A stretch of 64,000 bases of DNA from an uncultured Nitrospiraceae bacterium (GCA_964587655.1 CAZPMT010000010.1:16506-80505), one strand, 5' to 3'; positions 1 to 47,855 are shown, counted from the stretch's first letter. Notes: generated from the letters alone by a model not told the origin. Made by a program: numbers and translations.

Positions 1-352
1 GGACGACCCTGACGGGGTCGAACAGCGTGGAAACGAGGTTAATACTGCGTGTTCAACCCCTTCAGGGTTGTCTATCGCGTACGCGGGTTCCGTGGGTTTC
101 ACCCACGGCTATTCACGTTGCATCCCTTCGGGATGTCATACCGAACCTGTAACGTTATCTCGAGAACACACTACTAGTCGGTGGGTGGCGAATGTTTCGC
201 ACTGATTGTGCTTGGCAACATAAAACCGTGCTTGATCTTGCAGGCGAGTGAATGATATGGGAGGATGCCCGCTCACACACATGGCGGAAACGGCATTCAA
301 GAGGCTAGGAACGTCTTTGTCGAGTCAAACCAGGAAGCGGAGGAAGTGGACT

Positions 353-1303
353 ATGAACACGCGCTTGTGGCCCAGAGTTCTGTTGTTAGCGATAGCGGTT
401 ATCTTGACGGTAGTTCCCGTCGCCTGGGCGGCGGACAAACCAGTCGGCACGCCCAACGCCGAGAAGCTGGGATGGCGGCTGGGCTGTCAGGCGTACTCGT
501 TCAACAAGTTCACCTTCTTCGAGGCGGTGGACAAGACGGCTTCCGTGGGCTTGAAGTACATCGAAGCCTACCCCGGTCAGAAGCTCAGCGCCGAAATGCC
601 CGACGCGAAGTTCGACCAGAACATGTCTGAGGACGCGCAGAAAGCCGTGAAGGCCAAGCTCGACGCGGCGGGCGTGAAGCTGGTCAATTACGGTGTCGTG
701 GGACTGCCAAACGATGAAAAAGAATGCCGCAAGGTATTCGATTTTGCCAAGAAGATGGGCGTCGAGACGATCGTCTCCGAACCCTCCAAAGAAACACTGT
801 CGCTCCTGGACAAGCTGACGGAGGAGTACGGCATCAACGTCGCCATTCACAATCATCCTAAGCCCTCGCCGTACTGGGACTACAAGATAGAACTGGAGGC
901 GCTTCAGGGTCACAGCAAACGCATTGGCGCGTGCGCGGACACGGGCCATTGGATGCGCTCGTGCACCGACTCGGCCGAAACCGTCAAGAAGCTGAAGGAG
1001 CAGTATGGCCCGGATGCGGAGTCGCACATGCATTTTCTGAATTCCCTCGATGGCATCAAGGCCCTCGATGGACGTATTGTCTCGTTGCACCTGAAAGACC
1101 TCGATTCAGTGGGCAAGCTGGCGCATGATGTGCCGTACGGGACAGGCAAGACCGACATCAAAGGCATCTTGGCCGAACTCAAGCGTCAGGGCTTCAAGGG
1201 CGTGTTCTCGATCGAATATGAGTACAACATGGAGAACTCCCTTCCAGAGATCGCCAAATGCGTGGCCAATTTCGAGGCTATGGCCGCCGAACTGGCGAAG
1301 TAG
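353..1303 (+). CDS. Secreted sugar phosphate isomerase/epimerase (xylose-isomerase-like TIM barrel)
   Basis: ATG at 353 is preceded by GGAAGCGGAGGAAG (SD-like). The N-terminus MNTRLWPRVLLLAIAVILTVVPVAWA is a signal peptide. The body resembles AP-endonuclease/xylose-isomerase-like TIM barrels (HNHP, DTGHW motifs). The track ORF 248..1303 is an upstream extension. Confidence 0.7.
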   Translation: MNTRLWPRVLLLAIAVILTVVPVAWAADKPVGTPNAEKLGWRLGCQAYSFNKFTFFEAVDKTASVGLKYIEAYPGQKLSAEMPDAKFDQNMSEDAQKAVKAKLDAAGVKLVNYGVVGLPNDEKECRKVFDFAKKMGVETIVSEPSKETLSLLDKLTEEYGINVAIHNHPKPSPYWDYKIELEALQGHSKRIGACADTGHWMRSCTDSAETVKKLKEQYGPDAESHMHFLNSLDGIKALDGRIVSLHLKDLDSVGKLAHDVPYGTGKTDIKGILAELKRQGFKGVFSIEYEYNMENSLPEIAKCVANFEAMAAELAK

Positions 1304-1332
1304 CGTCGCGCATCAGCTCGTGTTCTCGTGGA

Positions 1333-1349
1333 TGCAGGCAAGATGCCTG
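1333..1349 (+). terminator. Hairpin GCAGGCaagatGCCTGC downstream of the isomerase gene
   Basis: Perfect 6-bp stem 30 nt after the stop codon. No clear T-run, so this is a weak terminator call. Confidence 0.25.
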
Positions 1350-1432
1350 CGTTACGCTGGAAATCGTATCGAGTCTTGGAGTATTATCCGGCCCTGATTG
1401 GCAGCAACCTACCGCAGTAAATAGGTGAAAAA

Positions 1433-3109
1433 ATGAGCCGTCGAGAGAAGAACTGCATGGACGATTCCCGCATGGGTCCGGATCGGATTCCGGGTGCACG
1501 TAAACGTAACAAGGACGCCCGGAAAACATCGTTGAGCAGTCCCCCTTTGAAGGGGGATTCCGCATCAAGTCCCCCTTTGAAGGGGGATTTAGGGGGATGT
1601 TCAAGCACCGCGTCAGAGGCATGTGGCAAAACACATCCCCCTAAATCCCCCTTCAAAGGGGGACTTGATGCGCATTCCCGCCGCGATTTCCTCGTGTCGA
1701 CGGCAGCGGGGGCGAGTCTTCTCTTTGTAGGGAAAGCCATCGCGCAGGAAGCGGCCGCGCCCGCGGCCCCGCCTGCCCCTGAAGCGCCAGCTACCGCACC
1801 TGCCACGCCCGCCGCGGCGCCCGTTGCTCCAGCGCCCGCTGCGCCTCCGGCGCCTGCTGTGCTTCCGTCGGGCACGAAGCTGAACGACCTGAATATCGCG
1901 TTGGTGGGTCTCGGCGCCGAGGGCATGGTGCTGACGGACGCCCTCCTCCGCATCCCGGGCATTCGGTTCAAGGCCGTGTGCGACATCTGGAAGTACAGTC
2001 TGAAACGCGGCTCCGGCATGCTGAAGAAGTACGGGTATCAGGTCAACGCGTACGTCGACTTCGATGAGATGCTGGCCGCGGAGAAGGACAACATCGATGC
2101 CGTCGTGGTGGCCACGCCCGATTTCGTCCATCACGCGCATACCATTGCCAGCCTCAAGGCCGGCAAGCACGTGTACTGCGAGAAGGAGATGTCGAACCGC
2201 CTCGAAAACGCCCGCCAGATGGTCCTCGCGGCGCGCGAGACCGGCAAGCTTCTCCAGATCGGCCACCAGAGGCGCAGCAACCCCCGCTATATCCACGCGA
2301 TCAACACGCTCGTGCACGAGAATCGGTTGCTGGGCCGCGTGACGCACGGCTACGCTCAGTGGAATCGCGCGAAGAGCGAGGACTTGGGCTGGAACCCGAA
2401 GTTAGAGATCGATACCGCCACGCTGGAGAAGTATGGATACGACTCGATGCAGCACTTCCGGAACTGGCGGTGGTATAAGAAGTACGGCGGCGGCCCGATC
2501 GTGGACCTCGGGTCGCACCAGATCGACATCTTCGCCTGGGTGTTCGGGGTAATGCCGAAATCCGTCATGGCCGGCGGCGGAATAAACTTCTACAAGACGC
2601 ACGAGTGGTACGACAACGTCCTGGCCACATTCGAATATGAGAACGCCGAAGGCGTCAACCGCGCCTTCTACCAGGTCCTGACGACAACTAGCAACGGCGG
2701 TTTCTATGAGAGCTTCATGGGCGAGAACGGCACGCTCGTCATCTCGGAAGTTTCGCAACGCGGCAATCACCTGCTCCGTGAGGCGCACGCTCCTGAGTGG
2801 GATCCCTACGTGAGCCGGGGGTTGCTCGATAAACCGCCCGCGCCGCCATCGACGGCGCAAAAGCTCAAGAACATCGTACTCGATGTGCGCGTCTCCGCAC
2901 CACTCGGCGTGTGGCCTTTGCCGGTGCAGTTCAACAAGCTGCCGCACCAGGCGCACCTCGAAAATTTCTTCGACGCCATACGGCTCGGCACGCCGCTGAG
3001 TTGTCCGGCGGAAGTCGGCTTCGAGACCGCCGTGGCCGTGCTGAAGGTGAACGAAGCCGTTGAAGCCGGCGTCAAGCTTGCTTACGCGCCAGAGGAGTTC
3101 AAGGCGTGA
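1433..3109 (+). CDS. Gfo/Idh/MocA-family NAD(P)-dependent oxidoreductase, Tat-exported
   Basis: ATG at 1433 with AGGTGA 6 nt upstream. Twin-arginine motif SRRDFLV followed by a hydrophobic stretch and AxA. Rossmann fold IALVGLGAEG and typical Gfo/Idh/MocA body. The first ~75 codons run through the MITE copy, so the effective start and mature N-terminus are uncertain. Confidence 0.8.
   Translation: MSRREKNCMDDSRMGPDRIPGARKRNKDARKTSLSSPPLKGDSASSPPLKGDLGGCSSTASEACGKTHPPKSPFKGGLDAHSRRDFLVSTAAGASLLFVGKAIAQEAAAPAAPPAPEAPATAPATPAAAPVAPAPAAPPAPAVLPSGTKLNDLNIALVGLGAEGMVLTDALLRIPGIRFKAVCDIWKYSLKRGSGMLKKYGYQVNAYVDFDEMLAAEKDNIDAVVVATPDFVHHAHTIASLKAGKHVYCEKEMSNRLENARQMVLAARETGKLLQIGHQRRSNPRYIHAINTLVHENRLLGRVTHGYAQWNRAKSEDLGWNPKLEIDTATLEKYGYDSMQHFRNWRWYKKYGGGPIVDLGSHQIDIFAWVFGVMPKSVMAGGGINFYKTHEWYDNVLATFEYENAEGVNRAFYQVLTTTSNGGFYESFMGENGTLVISEVSQRGNHLLREAHAPEWDPYVSRGLLDKPPAPPSTAQKLKNIVLDVRVSAPLGVWPLPVQFNKLPHQAHLENFFDAIRLGTPLSCPAEVGFETAVAVLKVNEAVEAGVKLAYAPEEFKA
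1538..1560. repeat. Solo partial copy of the MITE terminal repeat (AGTCCCCCTTTGAAGGGGGATT)
   Basis: Identical to the outer 22 nt of the MITE TIR. Lies in tandem immediately upstream of the full copy. Confidence 0.7.
1566..1666. mobile_element. Foldback MITE copy 1 (36-bp perfect terminal inverted repeats, about 101 bp)
   Basis: Left arm CAAGTCCCCCTTTGAAGGGGGATTTAGGGGGATGTT. Right arm AACACATCCCCCTAAATCCCCCTTCAAAGGGGGACTTG, the exact reverse complement. Each arm also contains a CCCCC-loop-GGGGG sub-hairpin. The internal ~30 bp differs from copy 2. Confidence 0.75.
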
Positions 3110-5190
3110 GGAGCACAGTTCTGCGAGCCGCTATGACTGCGGCGCTGGTTGGCGCGATCTGTATGCCCGCGTACGGCGCTCCGCGCAAGCACGTCATTGT
3201 CGACGGCAATCGGGCCCGCACCGTCCACACAATCCCGCTCTACGACGAGAACTATAAAGAGGTCCGTCCCGACGACGATATGCCGATGCCGTTCTCGACG
3301 CGGAACACCTGCGGCGACTGCCACGACTACGAGAAGATCGGCATGGGCTGGCACTTCAACGCGTCCCAGAACATCACCGATCCGGGGCGTCCGGGCGAGC
3401 CGTGGGTGCTCGTCGATGAGAGCGCGGGCGTGCAGCTTCCTCTTTCGTACCGAGGCTGGCCCGGGACTTGGAAACCGCAAGACCTCGGCATGACCGAATG
3501 GGACTTCGTGAAGACGTTCGGACATCACATGCCCGGCGGTGACATGGGGGAAAGGGAAGAGGAAGTCCCAAACCCGAACGCGCGGTGGAACGTTTCAGGA
3601 AAGGTCGAGATCAATTGTCTCGCCTGTCATAACGTATGCGCCGACCAAAATCAGAGCGAATGGGCCATTCAAATCGCGAGAGAGAATTTCCGATGGGCCG
3701 CAACCGCCGCCAGTTCGCTGGGCATCGTGCTAAACATGGCCTCCCGCCTCCCGGAGTATTACGACCTAATCGATGGGCCCAACAAGGACAATCAATGGGC
3801 CGCGGTCCCGGAGGTCAAGTACCAGTCATCGCGTTTCAACGAGAAGAACAAGATCTTCTTCGACGTAAACCGGAATGCCCCGAACAACCGGTGCTACTAC
3901 TGCCATTCGAGCGTTCCCAAGAACGTGGACACGGAGAAGGTCTGGGCGTGGGACGGCGACGTACATCTTCTGGCGGGGCTGACGTGCACCGACTGCCACC
4001 GCAACGGCCTTGACCACTTCATCTCCCGCGGATATGAGGGTGAGCGCGCGGACCCTTCGTACAGCACGCTTACCTGCCGCGGATGCCATCTCGGCGATCC
4101 GTCCGGCCGGGGTTTCGAGTTTAGAGGCGGGCGCATGACCGCTCCGCGGCCCCTGCACCGCGGGCTGCCGCCGGTGCACCTCGAGAAAATGACCTGCACG
4201 GCCTGTCACTCCGGATTTCTTCCGGGCGATAAGACCGAGCGGATCCGGACCGCCCGCGCAAACCGTCTCGGCATTCATGGACGCGCCCAGTGGGATACGG
4301 AACTTCCGTACATCCTCGCGCCGGTCTTCGTGCGGCAGGGCGACGGCAAGATCGAGCCGCACGAGATCATGTGGCCGGCGTTCTGGGGAAGCATGAAGGG
4401 CGGCAAGGTCACGCCGTTGTCTCTCGATGTTGTTTCGCCGATCGTGACGGCCATGCGCGACGCAGAGAAAGAGGCGCAGCTCGATATCGAACGCCAGAAA
4501 CAGGAGGCGAGCGCACCGCCGCAGGCCGAGGCAAGATCAGGCGAAGGTGAGGGTGAAGGCGAAGTTGAAGGTGAGGGTGAAGGTGAAGGCGAAAGCGAAG
4601 GTGAAGGCGAGGGCGAAGGCGAGGGCGAAGGCGAAGGGGAGGCCAATGAACAGGAACCCGCCGCGCCTGAGGTCATTATCGAGGAGATCCCGCCGCTCAC
4701 GGAACATCAGGTGGCCAAGGTCCTGACGGAACTAGCCGCCACAGTTGGGCCGGAGGCGCAGCCCGTCTACGTCGCCGGCGGCAAGTTGTACAAAGCCGCG
4801 TCCGGCGGCGCCGGGCTGGCTTCCGTGGACCATGACGCGGCGAAGCCGTACTCGTGGGCCTTCGCGCACGACGTTCGCCCAGCGTCGCAATCGCTGGGCG
4901 CGCGCGGTTGCACCGACTGTCACGATGAGGACTCGAACTTCTTCTTCGGCGAGGTCGAGCACGCGGCGCCGACGCCGCTGGGAACGCCCGTGTCGACGCC
5001 GATGTACGCGATGACCCAACTCGATCCGAAGCTCTTGACGGCGCTTGACGCGGAGGTCGAACTGCGCACGCCGCTTATTGTGGGCGCGATCGTCTTGATA
5101 ATCCTCCTTGGCGTGGCGCTCCTTCACTATGGGTTCATCGGGCTTGAGAGTTTCTTGAGACTTCTCGTCGCCCCCGGCGGCAAGAAGTAG
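3106..5190 (+). CDS. Membrane-anchored multiheme cytochrome c (7 CxxCH motifs)
   Basis: GTG start overlaps the upstream stop (GTGA), with AGGAG 8 nt upstream. Signal peptide MRSTVLRAAMTAALVGAICMPAYGA. CxxCH motifs: CGDCH, CLACH, CYYCH, CTDCH, CRGCH, CTACH, CTDCH. C-terminal hydrophobic helix LIVGAIVLIILLGVALL. Confidence 0.85.
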   Translation: MRSTVLRAAMTAALVGAICMPAYGAPRKHVIVDGNRARTVHTIPLYDENYKEVRPDDDMPMPFSTRNTCGDCHDYEKIGMGWHFNASQNITDPGRPGEPWVLVDESAGVQLPLSYRGWPGTWKPQDLGMTEWDFVKTFGHHMPGGDMGEREEEVPNPNARWNVSGKVEINCLACHNVCADQNQSEWAIQIARENFRWAATAASSLGIVLNMASRLPEYYDLIDGPNKDNQWAAVPEVKYQSSRFNEKNKIFFDVNRNAPNNRCYYCHSSVPKNVDTEKVWAWDGDVHLLAGLTCTDCHRNGLDHFISRGYEGERADPSYSTLTCRGCHLGDPSGRGFEFRGGRMTAPRPLHRGLPPVHLEKMTCTACHSGFLPGDKTERIRTARANRLGIHGRAQWDTELPYILAPVFVRQGDGKIEPHEIMWPAFWGSMKGGKVTPLSLDVVSPIVTAMRDAEKEAQLDIERQKQEASAPPQAEARSGEGEGEGEVEGEGEGEGESEGEGEGEGEGEGEGEANEQEPAAPEVIIEEIPPLTEHQVAKVLTELAATVGPEAQPVYVAGGKLYKAASGGAGLASVDHDAAKPYSWAFAHDVRPASQSLGARGCTDCHDEDSNFFFGEVEHAAPTPLGTPVSTPMYAMTQLDPKLLTALDAEVELRTPLIVGAIVLIILLGVALLHYGFIGLESFLRLLVAPGGKK
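4541..4643 (+). repeat. In-frame GGYGAR hexanucleotide tandem repeat encoding (Gly-Glu)n, about 17 units
   Basis: GGCGAAGGTGAGGGTGAAGGC... encodes SGEGEGEGEVEGEGEGEGESEGEGEGEGEGEGEGEA inside the cytochrome c, between the heme-rich domain and the C-terminal region. Confidence 0.9.
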
Positions 5191-5211
5191 AAGAATGCTG
5201 AAGGGAGCAGG

Positions 5212-5910
5212 ATGTTTCGTCTAATTGTTATCGCAGGCCTAGCCGCTACCATCGTGGCGGCATTGGGCCATCTCGTCATATTCGGCCCCAAGCGTGTCCC
5301 TGGAGCCGCGTCGAAGCGCTCTGTTAAGCGTTTCTCCTTCTGGGAACGCTTCATCCACATCGCGACCGTCGTCGGGTTCCTCGGCCTCGTTGGAACCGGC
5401 TTCTACGCCGTCATCGTCCAGCGAAGCGACCTGCACGGCTGGCTTTGGGTCATCCATGCGGCGTCGGCCCCCGTTTTCTCAATAGGACTCGTTATGCTCG
5501 TGACAACATGGGCCAAGGATGGCTGTTTTGCCCCGTGTGATTGGGAATGGGCCATGAAGTTCGGCGGCTACCTGTGGGGCGGCAAGCACGCGCCGGCGGA
5601 ACGGTTCAACGGAGGCCAGAAGGCCTATCTGTGGGCCGTCGGCGCACTGGGCCTTACGGCCCTTGTTACCGGTCTTGGCCGCGCGGTTCCGGTCCTCGAT
5701 GCGACCGGGCAGGAGGTCCTGTACCAGATTCACCGCTACGCCGCGTTGCTGTTCGCAATGGCCGGCGTTATCCACCTGTATCTCGGGACCTTGGCCAATC
5801 CCGGGACCTTCGGCGCCATGCTGACCGGCAAAGTGACCAGGGAATGGGCCGAGAACCATCATCCCCTGTGGTGGAAGGCCGTCAAAGATTCTGAGAAAGG
5901 GAACAGGTAA
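5212..5910 (+). CDS. Cytochrome b subunit (Ni/Fe-hydrogenase / formate dehydrogenase gamma-type, PF01292-like)
   Basis: AAGGGAG SD upstream. Four predicted TM helices with conserved His (FSFWERFIHIATVVGF, HRYAALLFAMAGVIHLYL). Lies 22 nt downstream of the multiheme cytochrome c. Confidence 0.65.
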   Translation: MFRLIVIAGLAATIVAALGHLVIFGPKRVPGAASKRSVKRFSFWERFIHIATVVGFLGLVGTGFYAVIVQRSDLHGWLWVIHAASAPVFSIGLVMLVTTWAKDGCFAPCDWEWAMKFGGYLWGGKHAPAERFNGGQKAYLWAVGALGLTALVTGLGRAVPVLDATGQEVLYQIHRYAALLFAMAGVIHLYLGTLANPGTFGAMLTGKVTREWAENHHPLWWKAVKDSEKGNR

Positions 5911-6026
5911 GTAGTCGAAAGTCGTCTGATATAATGGTGGAAGCGGCATCCCCGCCGCTTTCCGAACGCAACGAGGAGGCGGATTACCGCACGAAGCGTG
6001 CCGCCGTCAGCCATAAGGAGAAGGAA

Positions 6027-6710
6027 ATGAGTAAGAGAAGTGCAATGTGGGTGTGCATCGCCCAGGTGGTCATGTTCGCGGCATTCGTGATTGCCCCGAA
6101 AGTGATGGCCGAGGACATGGAGCCGCTGAAGATCGAACTCCCGAAACCGATGTTCGTCGGGACCCCGAAGAACATCGTGTCGCCGAACCTTGAACCCCCG
6201 ACCGGCAAGCCGCGCTCGCCGTTCATGGCGCCCAAGGGCGTGACGAACGTGGCCGAGAAGAAGCCGGGGACCGCGAGCGACAAAGAGCCGATCATCGGCG
6301 AACTCGAGATGCTCACCGACGGGGATAAGGAAGGCGCCGACGGCAGCTTCATCGAATTCGGTCCCGGCGTTCAGTGGGTCCAGGTCGATCTCGGCGCGCC
6401 GCAGGAGATCTTCGCGGTGGTGTTGTGGCACTATCACTCGCAGGCCCGCGTATATCGCGACGTCGTCCTCCAGCTTTCCGACGACCCCGATTTCGTGAAG
6501 GATGTCAAAACGGTCTTCAACAACGATCATGACAACACCGCGAAGCTCGGCGTCGGCCCGGACAAGGAATACATCGAGACCAACGACGGCCGCCTGGTCG
6601 ACTGCAAAGGCGCCAAGGCCCGCTATGTCCGTGTATACAGCAACGGCAATACTTCGAACGACATGAACCATATGATCGAGCTCGAGGTCTACGGCCGGCC
6701 GGCGAAGTAA
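6027..6710 (+). CDS. Secreted F5/8 type C (discoidin/galactose-binding-like) domain protein
   Basis: AAGGAGAAGGA SD, then ATG at 6027. Signal peptide MSKRSAMWVCIAQVVMFAAFVIAPKVMA. The C-terminal half has discoidin-like motifs (WVQVDLG, ARYVRVYS). Confidence 0.65.
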   Translation: MSKRSAMWVCIAQVVMFAAFVIAPKVMAEDMEPLKIELPKPMFVGTPKNIVSPNLEPPTGKPRSPFMAPKGVTNVAEKKPGTASDKEPIIGELEMLTDGDKEGADGSFIEFGPGVQWVQVDLGAPQEIFAVVLWHYHSQARVYRDVVLQLSDDPDFVKDVKTVFNNDHDNTAKLGVGPDKEYIETNDGRLVDCKGAKARYVRVYSNGNTSNDMNHMIELEVYGRPAK

Positions 6711-6805
6711 CGCCTTCACGGCAACGAACTCGTTTGCACGGATGTACAGGAGCAAGCGCGCAAAAACGCGCCCAGTCCTGTGCATCCCTTTTTTCTTTCA
6801 ACGGT

Positions 6806-6918
6806 CTTTTGTGTTCTTTGTGTTCTTTGCGGTTAAGAGTCTATGGACTTGCCCGTTTGGTTGCGGCTATGCTGCGCTGTGTTCATCTGTGTTCATCCGT
6901 GTTCATCCGTGGTTCAAC
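6806..6918 (+). promoter_or_regulatory. Tandem direct-repeat array upstream of the GT39-like gene: (TCTTTGTG)x3 and (YGTGTTCATC)x3 ending in CATCCGTGGTTCA
   Basis: TCTTTGTGTTCTTTGTGTTCTTTG at 6806-6829. CTGTGTTCATCTGTGTTCATCCGTGTTCATCCGTGGTTCAA at 6878-6918, which is 14 nt upstream of ATG 6932. The repeats are phased at about 10 bp. Confidence 0.45.
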
Positions 6919-6931
6919 TGACGTTTCTAGG

Positions 6932-8632
6932 ATGATTGACTTGACCCGAGAGAGCACACTGCGCGTCCTGGCGGCCGTTCTGGTTCTGACGGTCGCCGTT
7001 GGCGCATTCGTTTTCCGCGCGCCGCGCCTAGATCTCCGCCCAATGCACACCGATGAAGCCGTGCACACCATCAAGGCGGGCATGCTCCTCGAAAAAGGCG
7101 TCTACACTTACGATCCCAACGATTACCACGGCCCGACAATCTACTACGCGGCCCTGCCCTTCATATGGGCCGGTGGCGCCCGAACCCTCGCCGAGACTTC
7201 CGAATGGCAGTTCCGCATTGTGCCGGTCGTGTTCGGCGTGGGCCTGGTGCTTCTCCTCCTGCTCGTCATCGACGGACTCGGCGCGTGGGAAACCGTTTTC
7301 GCCGCCATCCTTACCGCCGTCTCTCCCGCGATGGTCTTCTACAGCCGCTATTACATCCAAGAGATCCCCTTTGTCTTCTTCACCTTCTTCGCTATCGCGG
7401 CGGGTTGGCGATACAGCCGATCTCCGCGAATCGGCTGGGCGCTCCTTTGCGGCGCGAGCCTCGGCCTCATGTTGGCCACAAAGGAGACCAGCATCCTGTC
7501 CTACGCGGCCATGTTGTGCGCCCTGCCGCTCACGCTCATCTGGACGCGATGGCGCGGCGGCGCCAACGCTCGCATTCGGGACTTCCTTCACCCATGCCAC
7601 ATTGCCGCCGCGTTCGTTCTCGGTTTGTGCGCATGCATCACCCTCGTTTCAGGCTTCTTCTCAAACCCGCGCGGCGCCATCGACATATTCTTGACCTTTC
7701 TCAGCTACTTCCATCGCGCGGGCGGAGTCGGGATTCACGATCACCCCTGGGACTACTACTTCCGAATCCTGTTAGGGCTTGACAATCTTCCGGGGCCTCA
7801 GTGGAACGAAAAGCTGATTGTAGTCATGGCAATTGTCGGCGTCCTCGTCGCCTTGCTGAGCAAGCGCAATCCCGCATCAAGTCCCCCTTTGAAGGGGGAT
7901 TCAGGGGGATGTTCTGATGGCGTCTCAACGCAACCCGTTGCGACAACACATCCCCCTGAATCCCCCTTCAAAGGGGGACTTGCTCCAAACGCAGCTCCAC
8001 GCCTTCTGCGTAACCCAAGCCTCATCCGCTTCGTCGCCCTCTACACCCTCTTCCTCGCCGCGGCATACTGCGTAATCCCATACAAGACCCCCTGGTGCAT
8101 GCTCGGATTCCTCCACGGAATGATCCTTCTCGCGGGCGTGGGGTTTGCCGGACTTGTGCGTCTCGTACGGCACAACGGGCTGCGGGTGATTCTCGTTCTT
8201 GCCGTGGCATTCGCCGCGTTTCGTCTCGCGGATCTCGCCTACCAGGCGAGTTTCAAGTTCTACGCCGACACGCGCAACCCCTACGTCTACGGACATACCT
8301 CGACCGACATGTTGCGGCTCGTCAAGCGAATCGATGACATAGCGCGCCTTTCCCCGGACGGGCGGAACACGCTCATCAAGGTCGTCGCCCCGGACCCTTG
8401 GCCGCTGCCGTGGTACCTCCGGGCGTACACAAAGGTCGGGTATTGGCCCAACGCAGCGGATGACGTCGATGCCCCCATTGTTATCACATCGCAGGAACTC
8501 CAATCGGAAATCGAGAGCCGCCTGCGCGACACGTACCAGAGCGAATTCTACGGACAGCGTCCGGAAGTCCTCATGACCGTCTTCATCAGGAAGGACCTGT
8601 GGGACGCCTTCATCAAAACCCGGACAAGCTGA
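6932..8632 (+). CDS. GT39/PMT_2-like (TIGR03663-type) polytopic membrane glycosyltransferase-family protein, carrying an in-frame MITE insertion
   Basis: ATG 6932 with AGGA upstream. Many TM helices. Conserved regions HTDEAVH, YDPNDYHGP, DPWPLPWYLR. Residues encoded at 7876-7982 (SSPPLKGDSGGC...ESPFKGGL) derive from the MITE. Confidence 0.65.
   Translation: MIDLTRESTLRVLAAVLVLTVAVGAFVFRAPRLDLRPMHTDEAVHTIKAGMLLEKGVYTYDPNDYHGPTIYYAALPFIWAGGARTLAETSEWQFRIVPVVFGVGLVLLLLLVIDGLGAWETVFAAILTAVSPAMVFYSRYYIQEIPFVFFTFFAIAAGWRYSRSPRIGWALLCGASLGLMLATKETSILSYAAMLCALPLTLIWTRWRGGANARIRDFLHPCHIAAAFVLGLCACITLVSGFFSNPRGAIDIFLTFLSYFHRAGGVGIHDHPWDYYFRILLGLDNLPGPQWNEKLIVVMAIVGVLVALLSKRNPASSPPLKGDSGGCSDGVSTQPVATTHPPESPFKGGLAPNAAPRLLRNPSLIRFVALYTLFLAAAYCVIPYKTPWCMLGFLHGMILLAGVGFAGLVRLVRHNGLRVILVLAVAFAAFRLADLAYQASFKFYADTRNPYVYGHTSTDMLRLVKRIDDIARLSPDGRNTLIKVVAPDPWPLPWYLRAYTKVGYWPNAADDVDAPIVITSQELQSEIESRLRDTYQSEFYGQRPEVLMTVFIRKDLWDAFIKTRTS
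7876..7982. mobile_element. Foldback MITE copy 2 (same 36-bp TIRs), inserted in frame in the GT39-like CDS
   Basis: CAAGTCCCCCTTTGAAGGGGGATTCAGGGGGATGTT ... AACACATCCCCCTGAATCCCCCTTCAAAGGGGGACTTG. The arms differ from copy 1 at one position each, with the change compensatory between arms. Confidence 0.75.
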
Positions 8633-8647
8633 CGACAGGAGCGTGAC

Positions 8648-9571
8648 ATGAGCGACGAGCCGTTTCGTTTCCCGCATGAAGCCATGGCCACCACTTTCCA
8701 GGCGATGATCGTTGCAGATTCGCGGAGCTACGCCGAGCAGGCCGCCATGGACGCATTCGCCGAAGTGGACATCATCGAGAAGGAGATCAGCAACTTCATC
8801 GAGACCAGCGACGTCTCACAGATCAACCACCTCCCCGCGGGACAGTGGGCCCGCATCGGGATCCACACCTGCGAATGCCTCAAAGCCGCCGCCCAAGTCA
8901 GCGCCGAGACCAACGGCGCGTTTGACGTAACCGTCGGGCCTCTAGTCGCCTGCTGGCGCAACCCCGACAAGTCCCCGCGCCAGCCCTCCGAAGACGAACT
9001 GGCCAAGGCACGCGCCCTGGTCGGGATGAAACTGATCGAGTTGGACGCAGCGGAAAACCGCGTCCGCGTCAAGACTCACGGCGTCAGAATCGACCTCGGC
9101 GGCATCGGAAAAGGTTACGCCGTCGACCGCGCCATCGAGACCCTCAAAGAATGGGACATCGAATCAGCCCTGGTCAACGCAGGCGACAGCAGCACCTTCG
9201 CACTAGGCAACCTCAAAGGCCAGCAGGGATGGCCAGTCGGCGTCGGAGGCATCCGCGACGAAGAAAAGCCCCCCTACATAATCGACCTCTGCAACCAGTC
9301 CCTGAGCGGCAGCGGAACACACGTGAAAGGCGCGCACATCATCGATCCCCGGACCGGACGGCCCGTCGCCGGCAAAATCGCCGCCTGGGCCCTTCATCCC
9401 AACGCAACCATAGCCGACGCCCTTTCCACCGCATTCATGGTAATGTCCTCAGCGGAAGTCGAACAATACTGCCATGCCCGCACCGACACCGGAGCTCTCC
9501 TAGTCCCCAAGAATGAAGGTCAGATCACTCGTCAGCGCTACGGAAACTGGAAAGGGCTGCATGACGCATGA
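8648..9571 (+). CDS. apbE: FAD:protein FMN transferase (ApbE family)
   Basis: Hallmark ApbE motifs IDLGGIGKGYAVDRA and GSGTHVKGAHIIDPRTG. The length fits soluble ApbE. Confidence 0.85.
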   Translation: MSDEPFRFPHEAMATTFQAMIVADSRSYAEQAAMDAFAEVDIIEKEISNFIETSDVSQINHLPAGQWARIGIHTCECLKAAAQVSAETNGAFDVTVGPLVACWRNPDKSPRQPSEDELAKARALVGMKLIELDAAENRVRVKTHGVRIDLGGIGKGYAVDRAIETLKEWDIESALVNAGDSSTFALGNLKGQQGWPVGVGGIRDEEKPPYIIDLCNQSLSGSGTHVKGAHIIDPRTGRPVAGKIAAWALHPNATIADALSTAFMVMSSAEVEQYCHARTDTGALLVPKNEGQITRQRYGNWKGLHDA

Positions 9572-15983: not shown

Positions 15984-18900
15984 GTGGGAAAATGGGAGTC
16001 GAACATGGAACAGGCTGAATCCTACAAGCCCCGGCATCACGTCCGTCTTGTGACGGCGACGTCGCTTTTTGACGGGCATGACGTGGCGATCAATATCATG
16101 CGCAGGATTCTCCAGGATTCGGGCGCGGAGGTCATTCATCTCGGCCACAACCGGAGCGTGTCGGAAATCGTGGACGCGGCAATTCAGGAAGACGCGCATG
16201 CCATTGCGGTGAGTTCATATCAGGGGGGGCACGTCGAGTTCTTCCGGTTCATGATGAGCCTGTTGAAAGAACGCGGGGCGGACAACATTCAGGTGTTCGG
16301 CGGCGGCGGCGGCGTGATCGTGCCGTCGGAAATCCGCGACATCGAGGCCATGGGCGTGACGAAGATCTTCTCGCCGGAAGACGGACGGAGCATGGGGTTG
16401 CAGGGGATGATCAACCACATGCTCGAATGCGTGGATCGCCCGCTGAACACGGACGGCCTCCCGGAACGCGCGCCTGAACTGAGTCCCTCGAACGGCGGGC
16501 TCGTTGCGCGCTACATCACCGGCATCGAGGAAGCGAAGTCCCAGCAGAACGGCCGTCTCACGGCCCTAATGCAACCGCTCATGAAGAAGATCTGCCGCAA
16601 TATCCCCATCTTCGGCGTGACGGGCACCGGCGGGGCGGGCAAGTCTTCGCTTGTCGATGAGCTTGTCACGCGCTTTCTGAACGATTTCAGCGACAAAGCG
16701 GTCGCGATCGTCTCCGTGGATCCCACGCGAAGGAAGTCGGGGGGCGCGCTGCTCGGAGACCGCATTCGGATGAATTGCCTGCGTCGAGATCGCGTCTATA
16801 TGCGTTCTCTGGCCACGCGCGACGCGAGCGTCGAGATATCGGACGCCCTCGCGGAATGTTTGACGGTGCTTCGCGCCGCGAACTTCGATTGGATCGTGGT
16901 CGAAACGGCCGGCATTGGGCAGGGCGACGCTGCAATCGTCCCGCATGTCGATGCGACTGTTTACGTGATGACGTCGGATTTCGGTTCTCCTTCGCAGTTG
17001 GAGAAGATCGACATGCTCGACCTCGCCGACTTCGTGGCGATCAACAAGTTCGATCATAAAGGTTCCGACGATGCCCTGCGCGACGTGCGCAGGCAGTATC
17101 AGCGGAACCACCGGCGCTTCGACGAGAATCTCGAGGATATGCCGGTCTACGGGACCATCGCGTCGAAGTTCAATGATGACGGGATCGCCGCACTCTATCA
17201 GGCCATCGCGCGCATCATGAACGAACGCACGCGATGCGGGTGGAATTCCTCGTACCCGCCTCTCAACAACAAAGTCCCCTCCTCCAAGGCTGTGATCATC
17301 CCGCCTGGGCGGGTCCGTTACCTTGCTGAGATCGCGGATAGCGTCGAGTCCTATCACAAGTCCGCGTCACGACAGGCGGAGATCGTCGAGCAAATCTGGC
17401 AACTGGACGGCGCCATGTCCTTGCTGACCGACAATCAAAGCGACGCCATGAAGCCGCTCCAGCATAGACGCGACCAGTTGGCCAATGAGATCTCAGCCGA
17501 CTGCCGGGCAATCCTAGAGCGTGCCCCCAAGATCCGCGAGCAATATGAACAGGACGAGATCGTATATACAGTTCGCGGAAAAGAGATCCACACCGTCCTG
17601 CATCGCCGGAGTCTGTCGGGCACCAAGATCCCTCGCGTCGCCCTGCCGAAATATCGCAATCCTGGCGACCTTCTCCGCTGGATCTATAAGGAGAACCTGC
17701 CGGGGCGGTTCCCCTTCACCGCCGGCGTCTTCCCCTTCAAGCGCGAAGATGAGGACCCCACGCGCATGTTCGCCGGCGAAGGCGACGCGGCGCGCACGAA
17801 CTACCGGTTCAAGTTTCTGTCGGCCAGTCACGATGCGAAACGGCTCTCGACGGCGTTCGACTCCGCGACGCTGTACGGTCGAGACCCGGACGAGCGACCC
17901 GATATATACGGCAAGATCGGCACGTCCGGGGTGTCGATATGCACACTCGACGATATGAGAGTGCTGTTCGACGGGTTTGACCTGTGCGGGGCCAGTACGA
18001 GCGTGTCGATGACGATCAATGGACCCGCTCCGATCATCCTGGCCATGTTCTTCAACGCGGCCATCGACCAGCAGCTAGTCCGGATCGAGCAGGAATACGG
18101 ACGGCCTCTCAGTCCCGACGAGACGGCGCGGTTCAAGGCTTGGACGCTCGAACGGGTCCGTGGGACGGTCCAAGCGGACATTCTCAAGGAGGACCAGGGA
18201 CAGAACACCTGTATTTTCGCGATTGATTTTGCGTTAAAGATGATGGGCGACATCCAGGAGTACTTCATCGAGCACCGGATCCGCAATTTCTACTCGGTGT
18301 CGATCTCCGGCTATCACATCGCTGAAGCGGGCGCGAATCCGATCTCGCAGCTTGCGTTCACGTTGGCGAACGGGTTCACGTACGTCGAGTATTACATCTC
18401 GCGGGGGATGGACATTGACGAATTTGCTCAGAATCTGTCCTTTTTCTTCTCGAACGGAATGGACCCGGAGTATTCGGTGTTGAACCGTGTCGCCCGGCGC
18501 ATCTGGGCGATTGCGATGCGCGACAAGTACGACGCGAACGAGCGCTCGCAGAAGCTCAAGGCGCACATTCAAACGAGCGGACGGTCGCTTCACTCGCACG
18601 AGATCCAGTTCAACGACATCCGCACGACGCTTCAGGCGTTGACGTCGATCTACGACAACTGCAATTCGCTCCACACGAACTCCTATGACGAGGGCATTAC
18701 GACGCCGAGCGAGGAATCGGCCCGGCGGGCGCTGGCGATTCAGCTCATCATCAACCGCGAATACGGCCTCACGATGAACGAGAACCCGCTGCAGGGATCG
18801 TTCCTTATGGAGGAGCTTACGGATCTCGTCGAGGAGGCGGTGCTTCATGAGTTTCGCCGGATCGCGGAACGCGACGGGGTGCTTGGCGCGATGGAGACGG

Positions 18901-19265
18901 GTTACCAGCGCGCGAAGATCCAAGAGGAATCGCTGTACTACGAGTCACGGAAGGTAAGCGGAGAACTCCCGATCATCGGCGTCAACACCTTCATCAACCC
19001 CCACGAAGACATCGATGCCGTCACCAGCAAGATGGAGTTGGCGCGATCCACCGACGAAGAAAAGCAGTCGCAACTCGCGCGCCTTCGCGACTTCCATACG
19101 CGGCACGCGCAAGAGGCCCCAGCAGCGTTAAAGCGACTGCAAGACGCCGCCTTGTCCGGCGGGAACGTCTTCGCCGAGCTCATGGAGACGGTGCGGTCTT
19201 GCTCACTGGGCCAGATTACGCAGGCGCTGTTTGAAGTCGGGGGCCAATACCGGCGAAACATGTAG
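15984..19265 (+). CDS. icmF: Fused isobutyryl-CoA mutase IcmF (B12-binding domain, MeaB-like G-protein, mutase TIM barrel)
   Basis: N-terminal B12 domain (FDGHDVAINIMRRIL). P-loop GTPase FGVTGTGGAGKSSL. C-terminal methylmalonyl-CoA-mutase-like substrate domain. 1093 aa and the domain order match IcmF. Confidence 0.9.
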   Translation: MGKWESNMEQAESYKPRHHVRLVTATSLFDGHDVAINIMRRILQDSGAEVIHLGHNRSVSEIVDAAIQEDAHAIAVSSYQGGHVEFFRFMMSLLKERGADNIQVFGGGGGVIVPSEIRDIEAMGVTKIFSPEDGRSMGLQGMINHMLECVDRPLNTDGLPERAPELSPSNGGLVARYITGIEEAKSQQNGRLTALMQPLMKKICRNIPIFGVTGTGGAGKSSLVDELVTRFLNDFSDKAVAIVSVDPTRRKSGGALLGDRIRMNCLRRDRVYMRSLATRDASVEISDALAECLTVLRAANFDWIVVETAGIGQGDAAIVPHVDATVYVMTSDFGSPSQLEKIDMLDLADFVAINKFDHKGSDDALRDVRRQYQRNHRRFDENLEDMPVYGTIASKFNDDGIAALYQAIARIMNERTRCGWNSSYPPLNNKVPSSKAVIIPPGRVRYLAEIADSVESYHKSASRQAEIVEQIWQLDGAMSLLTDNQSDAMKPLQHRRDQLANEISADCRAILERAPKIREQYEQDEIVYTVRGKEIHTVLHRRSLSGTKIPRVALPKYRNPGDLLRWIYKENLPGRFPFTAGVFPFKREDEDPTRMFAGEGDAARTNYRFKFLSASHDAKRLSTAFDSATLYGRDPDERPDIYGKIGTSGVSICTLDDMRVLFDGFDLCGASTSVSMTINGPAPIILAMFFNAAIDQQLVRIEQEYGRPLSPDETARFKAWTLERVRGTVQADILKEDQGQNTCIFAIDFALKMMGDIQEYFIEHRIRNFYSVSISGYHIAEAGANPISQLAFTLANGFTYVEYYISRGMDIDEFAQNLSFFFSNGMDPEYSVLNRVARRIWAIAMRDKYDANERSQKLKAHIQTSGRSLHSHEIQFNDIRTTLQALTSIYDNCNSLHTNSYDEGITTPSEESARRALAIQLIINREYGLTMNENPLQGSFLMEELTDLVEEAVLHEFRRIAERDGVLGAMETGYQRAKIQEESLYYESRKVSGELPIIGVNTFINPHEDIDAVTSKMELARSTDEEKQSQLARLRDFHTRHAQEAPAALKRLQDAALSGGNVFAELMETVRSCSLGQITQALFEVGGQYRRNM

Positions 19266-20356: not shown

Positions 20357-20368
20357 CGAATTCAGTAA

Positions 20369-20461
20369 GGGCGGTTTTTCCAAAACCGCCCCACAGTTGC
20401 TGCAGCCGCGCGCGCGGACGTTTGTGGTGTTGGGTGGGGACGGTTTTGGAAAAACCGCCCC
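20369..20461. terminator. Pair of inverted GC-rich/T-tract hairpins (GGGCGGTTTTTCCAAAACCGCCC and GGGGACGGTTTTGGAAAAACCGCCCC)
   Basis: First hairpin has a 10-bp perfect stem. The second is an imperfect inverted copy 45 nt downstream. Located between the stop at 20356 and the next ATG at 20495. Confidence 0.4.
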
Positions 20462-20494
20462 TACTTTGCATGTACGTTTTGAGAAGGATACGCG

Positions 20495-43946: not shown

Positions 43947-47365
<3,419 letters not shown>

Positions 47366-47510
47366 CTATCGGCAGGGTATATTGGCAGAGAAGAATCGAA
47401 ACAGCACTGGAGACATGCGACTCGGCGCGCCGCACGGGAAATGACATTCAAGACCACCCGGAGAACGGGTGGAATGAGGAAGGCCCCATAAAGGGGCCAG
47501 GCACTTTTTT

Positions 47511-47640
47511 CGTGCTCGTGCTCGTGCTCGTGCTCGTAATCGTAATCGAAGACACGAATGATCAGAGTCATACAGCAGAGATCAGCGGATATTTCATTTG
47601 CTCGATTACGATTACGATTACGAGCACGAGCACGAGCACG
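47511..47640. repeat. Palindromic hexanucleotide repeat array: (CGTGCT)4(CGTAAT)2 - 52-bp centre - (ATTACG)3(AGCACG)3
   Basis: The two 36-39-bp arms are near reverse complements and could form a long hairpin or cruciform. Intergenic, between ligA and the hydrolase gene. Confidence 0.8.
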
Positions 47641-47855
47641 AAAGCTGCGCTGGAACGGCAGAGCCTTATGAGTTCTCACCGGCAAAGCCGGTGGATCAGC
47701 TTTGATTCAGCTTGAAGTCCGCGAGGCGATGTATCTACCATGCCCGTTGTGCCGGATATGACGTTACGTGAGACGCGCTGACAGCATAGATTGAGATTGC
47801 ACAGGGCCTTCTGAGATGCTAGCATGCCCGTGTTGACGTGGGAGAGAAAGGTCAA

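Follow-up and report, generated by a model that had tools for sequence, protein, structure and literature searches.

What does a heptahaem cytochrome c do when its gene lies between those of an exported oxidoreductase and a cytochrome b? The question is raised by a gene cluster in a 64,000-nt stretch of DNA recorded as an uncultured Nitrospiraceae bacterium (CAZPMT010000010.1:16506-80505; the window below means this whole stretch), where the feature analysed covers 248-9571 of the + strand. By Pfam and NCBIfam assignment it contains seven closely spaced co-directional open reading frames (ORFs) in the order TIM-GFO-MHC-CytB-DISC-GT39-ApbE. A sequence-only reading of the same DNA had started the unit at 3106, with the cytochrome c gene MHC. 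The five genes it noted, MHC, CytB, DISC, GT39 and ApbE, are present and co-directional at the coordinates it gave, while the real unit begins upstream of them, with a gene for a twin-arginine translocation (Tat) signal-bearing Gfo/Idh/MocA oxidoreductase at 1433-3109. We consider it probable, by a modest balance, that 1433-5910 encodes a three-subunit membrane-bound periplasmic dehydrogenase resembling formate dehydrogenase-N, which would carry electrons from a sugar to quinone, with an accessory module co-located. The formate dehydrogenase-N-like architecture is seen in the RRxF motif, in a wire subunit with a single C-terminal transmembrane helix, in an FdnI-like cytochrome b and in the conserved gene order. 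The genes are as follows.

248-1303, + strand: TIM, xylose-isomerase-like TIM-barrel protein, secreted (PF01261, 69.5 bits; signal-like N-terminus MNTRLWPRVLLLAIAVILTVVPVAWA)
1433-3109, + strand: GFO, Tat-signal Gfo/Idh/MocA NAD-binding oxidoreductase (PF01408, PF22725, PF02894)
3106-5190, + strand: MHC, heptahaem c-type cytochrome of 694 amino acids (7 CxxCH, signal peptide, C-terminal membrane anchor)
5212-5910, + strand: CytB, FdnI/HydC-type cytochrome b (PF01292, 62.3 bits; TIGR01583, 100.5 bits)
5934-6710 (ORF; probable start 6027), + strand: DISC, CBM32/discoidin-fold protein, secreted or anchored (PF00754, PF22633)
6734-8632 (ORF; probable start 6932), + strand: GT39, GT-C-fold membrane protein of the TIGR03663/Agl23 family (TIGR03663, PMT_2, PMT)
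8648-9571, + strand: ApbE, FAD:protein FMN transferase without export signal (PF02424, 203 bits)

Relatives were collected by an alignment-driven scan in which each GTDB species was represented by one genome. This confirmed at least 535 relatives of MHC, and the best 80 loci were analysed. The seven window proteins were compared with these 80 loci by tblastn, and the denominators given below are the loci with enough sequence. Additional loci were sampled through DISC or ApbE instead of MHC (L081-L084, L086 and L089 are among them). By record label the 80 loci come from Hydrogenedentota, Planctomycetota (Pirellulales, Phycisphaerae, Sedimentisphaerales), Verrucomicrobiota, Aminicenantes, Calditrichota, Omnitrophota and others. 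Some clearly bacterial versions of the cluster are labelled 'Bathyarchaeia archaeon' (L004, DATKVG010000120.1) or 'Nitrospiraceae' (L002/L007), and their closest sequences are from Hydrogenedentota; these labels are probably binning or labelling errors.

Which enzyme would feed the cytochromes? The sequence-only reading had left the catalytic partner unnamed. The most constant neighbour of MHC is GFO, which lies directly upstream of it in 68 of 70 loci with a median identity of 56%, as against 41% for MHC, and in the window the stop codon of GFO overlaps the start of MHC by 4 nt (GTGA). A scan for promoters and terminators stayed at background level, and operon boundaries could not be set from that scan. 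GFO belongs to the Gfo/Idh/MocA family (PF01408, 67.7 bits) with conserved Rossmann and catalytic residues: RRxF, GxGxxG (G159/G161/G164), D184, K251, D358 and H362 are kept in at least 95% of 69 orthologues. The Asp after beta-2 (D184) is typical of NAD binding, and the Lys/Asp-x3-His set of inositol-dehydrogenase-type enzymes is intact. The closest solved relatives are DgpA, 1,5-anhydro-D-fructose reductase and Zymomonas GFOR, all of them sugar C3- or C1-oxidoreductases, and glucuronide 3-dehydrogenase is a more distant match among solved structures.

The same loci contain up to five paralogous Gfo genes, whose products are 23-35% identical to the window GFO and carry an RR (Tat-like) motif in 71 of 73 cases. 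Compared with these 73 paralogues, the MHC-linked GFO forms a distinct orthogroup with about 50 differing positions. EKP is replaced by EKE and D186 by W, there is an Arg-rich HQRRSNP segment, S361 stands beside the catalytic His, and two insertions are present. The rim of the active site is remodelled relative to the paralogues. With NF058561, the model of the BT2158-type glycoside 3-dehydrogenases, the window GFO scores 72.4 bits vs a cut-off of 750; it is related in kind to BT2158 without being an orthologue. The neighbours give an indication of the substrate. Of 54 loci, 20 have PF06439 (3-keto-disaccharide hydrolase) no more than 5 kb upstream, in giant HEAT+PF06439 proteins or in TIM+PF06439 fusions, and a homologue of TIM lies within 6 kb upstream of MHC in 18 of 49. 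Other recurring neighbours are TIM barrels, MFS or NCS1-like transporters and a cytoplasmic Gfo paralogue. Such recurrent neighbours read as the gene vocabulary of a 3-keto-glycoside pathway. TIM itself, whose enzyme class acts on keto-sugars or inosose, is an accessory gene outside the core.

The next gene was described by the sequence-only reading as a membrane-anchored seven-haem cytochrome c, and this description holds. MHC has exactly seven CxxCH motifs (residues 69, 171, 263, 294, 324, 364 and 602), a signal-like N-terminal segment and one C-terminal transmembrane helix (641-687). All seven motifs are invariant in alignments of 23, 61 and 71 relatives, and seven additional His residues (H41, 83, 287, 304, 351, 358 and 588) are invariant among 61-71 orthologues. 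These would suffice for bis-His ligation of all seven haems; with no open coordination site, MHC fits a wire and not a catalyst. The family comprises 340 clusters at 50% identity (E<=1e-30; search of 1.84 billion cluster representatives). Only the generic Pfam families Cytochrome_C7 and c3_2 match MHC above cut-off. The NCBIfam scores for named multihaem families (NrfB, DmsE, c7/c3, MtrC domains) are far below cut-off (for NrfB 28 vs 167 bits), and no PDB relative was found by single sequence, by profile or by Foldseek. At 4539-4640 (MHC residues ~478-512) a (GGx-GAx)n repeat is translated into a Gly-Glu linker, which is lineage-specific and has low model confidence; relatives carry other variable linkers at this place.

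MHC and CytB are separated by 21 nt when counted, not by the 22 nt given before, and this intergenic segment carries a GGGAG ribosome-binding site. Is CytB then an FdnI-type cytochrome b? It belongs to PF01292 (62.3 bits vs a cut-off of 30.1) and has all four FdnI-type His, in the pairs H49/H188 and H82/H174, and also H20; with the equivalog TIGR01583 (formate-dehydrogenase gamma) it scores 100.5 bits, below the cut-off of 115.85. The assignment therefore stands for the superfamily and the His pattern and fails for the equivalog, and CytB is a superfamily member and not an FdnI orthologue. The periplasm-side pair, H82 and H174, is kept in 60 of 62 CytB homologues. An extra N-terminal transmembrane helix (TM0; window 5212-5290) shows a weak match to the FdnH anchor family PF09163. 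A His in TM0 is conserved in about half of the CytB family.

A recognisable CytB lies directly downstream of MHC in 47 of 75 loci, with a median identity of 29%. In most of the loci where it is not recognisable, a divergent small membrane protein occupies the place, which aligns with CytB and matches PF01292 weakly. MHC and CytB form a single ORF in 7 of the 80 loci (L008, L014, L015, L027, L038, L047 and L063), with five transmembrane helices after the haem domain; in these fusions the MHC anchor stands in for TM0 of CytB. The two proteins had been proposed as a functional pair, a proposal against which it would have counted if the genes were consistently apart in relatives. Their adjacency and the fusions are the reverse of this and speak for the pair.

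How might these three subunits work together? The parts, the conserved order, the c-b fusions, the Tat motif and the intact Lys/Asp/His catalytic residues are all present, and the proteins might be joined in a physical complex. GFO would fold with its NAD cofactor in the cytoplasm, be exported by Tat, and act in the periplasm on a sugar, glycoside or cyclitol, which it would oxidise most likely at C3, because the neighbours process 3-keto-sugars. The two-electron hydride of NADH would have to be converted to one-electron steps, and the electrons would pass along the seven bis-His low-spin haems of MHC, which is anchored by its single C-terminal helix, to CytB, which would hand them to the quinone pool. 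We infer the direction of this flow from thermodynamics and from the dedicated donor enzyme. Transfer from NADH (-320 mV) to menaquinone (-74 mV) is downhill, while the reverse is not. The sequence-only reading had suggested a putative quinol-linked system and pointed to CbcL; with GFO as donor, flow into the quinone pool as in FdnGHI is the most plausible direction.

Several points weigh against this model. No enzyme is known to transfer hydride straight from a tightly bound NAD(P)H to haem c, and a flavin or similar mediator would be expected. No flavin mediator site was found in GFO, MHC or CytB, and the only flavin-related gene, ApbE, has no export signal and is tied closer to the GT-C gene than to the cytochromes. 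Many relatives keep only the periplasm-side His pair of CytB, and in some of them TM0 provides a His in place of the other pair. A quinone site on the cytoplasmic side is thus not universal, and its location may differ between lineages. In L028 the MHC-CytB pair occurs without GFO; the upstream genes there (secretin, isochorismatase, TPR) are unrelated to the cluster, and no alternative donor is found among them. All 80 MHC loci are from metagenome-assembled genomes (MAGs), and the evidence for a dehydrogenase-to-quinone route is all comparative.

There is a further question, what the three genes downstream of CytB contribute. DISC is a member of the discoidin/CBM32 group, with both PF00754 and PF22633 above cut-off, and the top Foldseek matches of its AlphaFold2 model (pLDDT 87.7) are CBM32 modules (E ~1e-7). 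Its predicted fold is that of a CBM32-type lectin module, and it may bind sugar. At least 6,298 homologues exist, and the top 120 among the matches listed share 60-96% identity. In some Planctomycetota versions of the cluster (L042:13904-14782, L050, L001) a formylglycine-generating-enzyme-like gene (PF03781) lies between the transporter and DISC. The next protein had been labelled GT39-like. PMT and PMT_2 are above cut-off, but TIGR03663/Agl23 is the best fit (182.9 bits vs a cut-off of 126.25). Its DE and HGP motifs are invariant and fall in the first outer loop, where HxDEA is seen, and no MIR domain was detected. Hydropathy, the positive-inside rule and the positions of all conserved motifs lead to a prediction of eleven transmembrane helices, with the N-terminus in and the C-terminus out. 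No PDB homologue of DISC or GT39 was detected with single sequences or profiles. Agl23 of Haloarcula translocates lipid-linked sugars in proteoliposomes, and its partner Agl22 is a GT2 dolichol-phosphate-hexose synthase (PMC11182771). The GT2 found beside ApbE in many relatives is Dpm1/Agl22-like by Pfam; no such GT2 is encoded in the window.

ApbE is confirmed as a family member (PF02424, 203 bits) and aligns to solved ApbEs. DLGGIxKGY (D149-G151-G154-K155-G156), H230 and DALST (D257/S260/T261) are conserved, and the protein looks catalytically competent. On which side of the membrane would it work? The window protein has no signal peptide, lipobox or hydrophobic N-terminus, and the same is true of the locus orthologues and of 119 among the 120 nearest relatives; their N-terminal extension ahead of the first strand is 22 residues long at the median. 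The role on extracytoplasmic proteins that the sequence-only reading gave to ApbE therefore cannot simply be transferred to a clade in which 119 of 120 relatives have no export signal. Cytosolic ApbEs modifying soluble enzymes are on record (PMC12052999). The survey of flavinylation is centred on extracytosolic ApbEs with [S/T]GA[S/T]-type substrates, and the present cluster is absent from it (PMC8238504). A conserved Cys pair, C77/C275, is specific to the clade; it is compatible with an oxidising compartment and proves nothing. Two relatives (L053:4196-6904 and L063:15505-18153) encode GT39 and ApbE as one in-frame fusion, with ApbE at the GT39 C-terminus. By the topology of GT39 the fused ApbE would be periplasmic, whereas the free ApbEs have no export signal. 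Either the predicted topology is wrong, or the fusions are atypical, or there is another export route, for example Tat hitch-hiking. Read-through of stop codons, which would give GT39-ApbE fusions everywhere, was ruled out, since the shared frame in 8 of 29 loci is at chance level.

Is there a substrate of ApbE in the cluster? The earlier statement that the neighbouring proteins have no canonical flavinylation motif proved right, as no real ORF of the window has one and none recurs in the 80 loci. A six-frame scan of the window with Dxx[ST]G[AS][ST] gave three matches, all in spurious low-complexity ORFs, and the same pattern gave nothing recurrent in ~1,000 ORFs of the 80 related loci. Nor is an [S/T]GA[S/T]-like site conserved in the families of GFO, MHC, CytB, DISC or GT39. 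Looser candidates were considered and set aside. The MHC hairpin PWxxxD-x-x-T-(G/A)-T-Q-(I/L)-P-L-S-Y-R (residues 98-118; window 3400-3440) is one residue short of DxxTGAT, and its Thr is present in 66 of 71 orthologues; the window sequence is DESAGVQ, by which 'DxxTGTQ' is ruled out as a flavinylation site. 'TASD' in DISC is the ordinary start of a discoidin domain, 'TG' in CytB is in our own reading a transmembrane motif of the cytochrome b family, and T417/T418 of GFO are Asn-Asn in L071 although ApbE is adjacent.

How tightly are the accessory genes bound to the cytochromes? Within 9 kb downstream of MHC, DISC is found in 33 of 42 loci, GT39 in 32 and ApbE in 34, with median identities of 60%, 40% and 45%, and all three genes lie downstream of MHC in 30 of 42. 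At least four gene orders occur, namely CytB-[transporter]-DISC-GT39-ApbE-<GT2, CytB-ApbE-DISC-GT39, CytB-GT39-ApbE-DISC and CytB-ApbE alone, so the proximity has been retained through rearrangements. The association of ApbE with the cytochrome pair, which the sequence-only reading had pointed out, is thus far above chance (34 of 42 loci, at least four gene orders, several phyla). The genes are also found apart from the cytochromes. In L081 (9015-12243) and L082 (9009-12348), DISC and GT39 are translationally coupled within Gfo/TIM/ThuA/PF06439 clusters that have no MHC, CytB or ApbE, and in L083 (8084-10640) the coupled pair is beside a transporter only. The complete Phycisphaerales chromosome L084 has DISC-GT39-ApbE-<GT2 alone, without cytochromes, and L089 has GT39-ApbE without MHC. 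In the MAG closest to the window, ApbE and the cytochrome cluster are on different contigs (L086 vs L002). Among the seven loci sampled through ApbE, this gene comes directly after GT39 in six, often with a start/stop overlap, and MHC is present in only three. The possibility that the placement of ApbE is a coincidence of synteny, with its substrate elsewhere, had been raised against the earlier proposal. It is partly borne out: the module is separable, yet proximity of MHC and ApbE persists in 34 of 42 loci. DISC, GT39, ApbE and GT2 form a separable module for lipid-linked sugar at the membrane, often but not obligatorily beside the dehydrogenase-cytochrome genes. DISC-GT39-ApbE(-GT2) would handle a polyprenyl-phosphate-linked sugar, and might mature or equip the periplasmic system, possibly by supplying flavin for the NADH-to-haem step.

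Could the cytochromes instead work in the opposite direction? As in CbcL, CytB and MHC might oxidise quinol and send electrons outward to a periplasmic or extracellular acceptor, with GFO either unrelated or a second donor to the haem hub. CbcL has the same two parts, fused here in 7 of 80 loci, and bis-His multihaem wires are typical of extracellular electron-transfer proteins. Many of the host lineages are labelled as sediment or anoxic-habitat MAGs, and mostly only the periplasm-side haem ligands of CytB are kept, as for a quinol site on the periplasmic side. We nevertheless consider this direction unlikely, because it leaves a nearly invariant and translationally coupled Tat-dehydrogenase gene (68/70) unexplained, because the 80 neighbourhoods show no recurring porin, outer-membrane cytochrome or terminal reductase, and because quinol is unable to reduce NAD-bound GFO without energy input. 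It is a good deal more conceivable, though short of probable, that DISC, the Agl23-like GT-C protein, ApbE and GT2 form an independent envelope-glycan module that merely tends to lie beside sugar-catabolic operons, in which case ApbE would be unconnected with the cytochromes and have its substrate elsewhere. The occurrence of DISC and GT39 with Gfo, TIM, ThuA and 3-keto-hydrolase genes in L081 and L082, where MHC, CytB and ApbE are missing, would be expected from such independence, as would the isolated DISC-GT39-ApbE-GT2 set in the L084 chromosome, the separate contig of ApbE in the closest relative of the window (L086 vs L002), the order GT39-ApbE in 6 of 7 ApbE-sampled loci with MHC in only 3 of 7, and the lack of a conserved flavinylation motif in any cluster protein. 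Against this, the distance of no more than 9 kb between ApbE and MHC in 34 of 42 loci, through several phyla and at least four orders, argues for selection and not for inherited synteny, and ApbE remains beside CytB in loci without DISC and GT39 (L013, L071).

If ApbE does serve the dehydrogenase, what would it modify? It might flavinylate GFO in the cytoplasm before export, giving an enzyme with NAD and FMN whose covalent flavin would convert hydride to one-electron steps. The ApbE clade has no export signals, among the conserved cluster proteins GFO alone, by its Tat motif, folds in the cytoplasm, conserved Ser/Thr and insertions are specific to the MHC-linked subgroup of GFO (S361, T417/T418, S438, S488), and cytosolic ApbEs acting on soluble enzymes exist (PMC12052999). 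This is improbable all the same, as GFO has no [S/T]GA[S/T]-like site, T417 and T418 are Asn in L071, whose ApbE is adjacent, L053 and L063 have ApbE fused to a GT39 C-terminus that is predicted to be periplasmic, and the DISC-GT39-ApbE module of L084 has no GFO nearby. A still bolder idea is that the signal-less ApbE has no classical FMN-binding domain as its target and acts at the cytoplasmic face with an Agl22-like GT2 and the Agl23-like GT-C protein or flippase, that these put a flavin across the membrane, for example as FMN esterified to a polyprenyl-phosphate-linked sugar, and that the GT-C and/or the highly conserved CBM32-like protein hold it as a tethered mediator between the NADH of GFO and the haems. 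We regard this as highly speculative and give it very little credence; if true, it would be a new route of periplasmic flavin supply and a two-to-one-electron converter for periplasmic NAD-type dehydrogenases. ApbE, GT39 and DISC may have a link with electron transfer, and the preferred reading, a sugar-to-quinone dehydrogenase made of GFO, MHC and CytB, is stated for the core.

Two copies of a palindromic repeat element lie within genes of the cluster.

1550-1679, no strand assigned: palindromic repeat element copy 1, in the 5' part of the GFO reading frame
7862-7982, no strand assigned: palindromic repeat element copy 2, in frame, in a predicted cytoplasmic loop of the GT-C gene

The copies are ~130 nt long, with arms of 47 nt that are 96% complementary, and both translate to ...SSPPLKGD...PFKGGL.... 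Copy 1 sits in the Tat n-region of the GFO ORF and appears to be translated, since there is no in-frame start codon from this copy to the RR motif. This copy does not belong to the cytochrome system. More strong inverted repeats are found in the window at 47182-47275, 47508-47643 and 20364-20465, one of which is made of (TCGTGC)n/(TAATCG)n units. At 15984-19265 a single ORF of 1,093 amino acids combines a B12-binding domain, a MeaB GTPase and methylmalonyl-CoA-mutase domains, as in an IcmF-like fused mutase; it is unrelated to the cytochrome cluster.

Why would such an enzyme matter? Planctomycetota, Verrucomicrobiota, Bacteroidota and related phyla have very large numbers of Tat-exported periplasmic Gfo/Idh/MocA enzymes, with which the 3-keto-glycoside route of glycan breakdown starts. 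These enzymes cannot exchange their NAD(P), which raises the question of their re-oxidation. The electron acceptor of BT2158, a periplasmic Tat-Gfo-type glycoside 3-dehydrogenase, is explicitly stated as not known (PMC8121099). The GFO-MHC-CytB operon offers a concrete candidate answer in at least 535 GTDB species-representative genomes of several phyla. If the model is true, many uncultured polysaccharide degraders could conserve energy by oxidising sugar outside the cytoplasm. The cluster also exposes an orphan clade of signal-less ApbEs that is genetically coupled to machinery for lipid-linked sugars.

With which known systems can the cluster be compared? The core shares with FdnGHI a catalytic subunit exported by Tat, a wire subunit anchored by a single C-terminal transmembrane helix (as FdnH), a four-helix PF01292 cytochrome b with the FdnI His pattern, and a proposed flow from a periplasmic donor to quinone. 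It differs in that the catalytic subunit is of the NAD-type Rossmann kind where Fdn has a molybdoenzyme, in that seven c haems take the place of four FeS clusters, and in the extra N-terminal helix of a CytB that is below the TIGR01583 cut-off. CbcL of Geobacter sulfurreducens, compared here by description only, is reportedly a HydC/FdnI-type b domain fused to a nine-haem multihaem c domain, which oxidises quinol towards extracellular acceptors. It shares with the present system the combination of HydC/FdnI-type b and multihaem c, fused in 7 of 80 relatives. In the window these are two genes with seven haems and not nine, a periplasmic dehydrogenase gene is attached, and the flow is likely in the opposite direction. 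Membership of the CbcL type, with separate genes and 7 haems, is thus not borne out in the window. The flavoprotein-cytochrome c sugar dehydrogenases (FAD-glucose, fructose and gluconate dehydrogenases; glucoside 3-dehydrogenase/LacABC) oxidise sugars in the periplasm, as GFO would, at C3 in the case of glucoside 3-dehydrogenase, and are connected with the respiratory chain through a membrane-anchored multihaem c. Their catalytic subunit is a GMC/FAD protein and their tri-haem cytochrome reduces quinone directly, whereas here an NAD-type GFO, a seven-haem protein and a separate cytochrome b are found, with no recognisable flavin site.

Zymomonas GFOR and Bacteroides BT2158 resemble GFO in fold, Tat signal and the expected tightly bound nicotinamide cofactor, and also in neighbours encoding 3-keto-disaccharide hydrolase and TIM-barrel proteins. 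They are thought to regenerate the cofactor by a second sugar substrate and have no cytochrome partner, and GFO differs from them by EKE for EKP and by its insertions. For the accessory genes, the Agl22/Agl23 pair of Haloarcula hispanica and Gtr/Arn-type systems for lipid-linked sugars similarly join a polyprenyl-phosphate hexose synthase of the GT2 family to a GT-C-like membrane protein of TIGR03663; the present system is bacterial and pairs them with a CBM32-like secreted protein and ApbE. In Klebsiella pneumoniae a soluble fumarate reductase is flavinylated by a cytosolic ApbE, which also has intact catalytic motifs and no signal peptide. The ApbE described here has no FMN_bind or [S/T]GA[S/T] substrate nearby and is coupled to a GT-C membrane protein, to which it is fused in two relatives. 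No description of a Gfo/Idh/MocA-multihaem-cytochrome b cluster or of this ApbE clade was found among the papers searched, a weak negative given that full-text search matches the family name poorly. The core would work like FdnGHI or the flavoprotein-cytochrome c sugar dehydrogenases and is a member of neither. We propose that it is a periplasmic dehydrogenase:quinone oxidoreductase whose catalytic subunit, being of the NAD type, would be without precedent, and near which an orphan flavin transferase is encoded.

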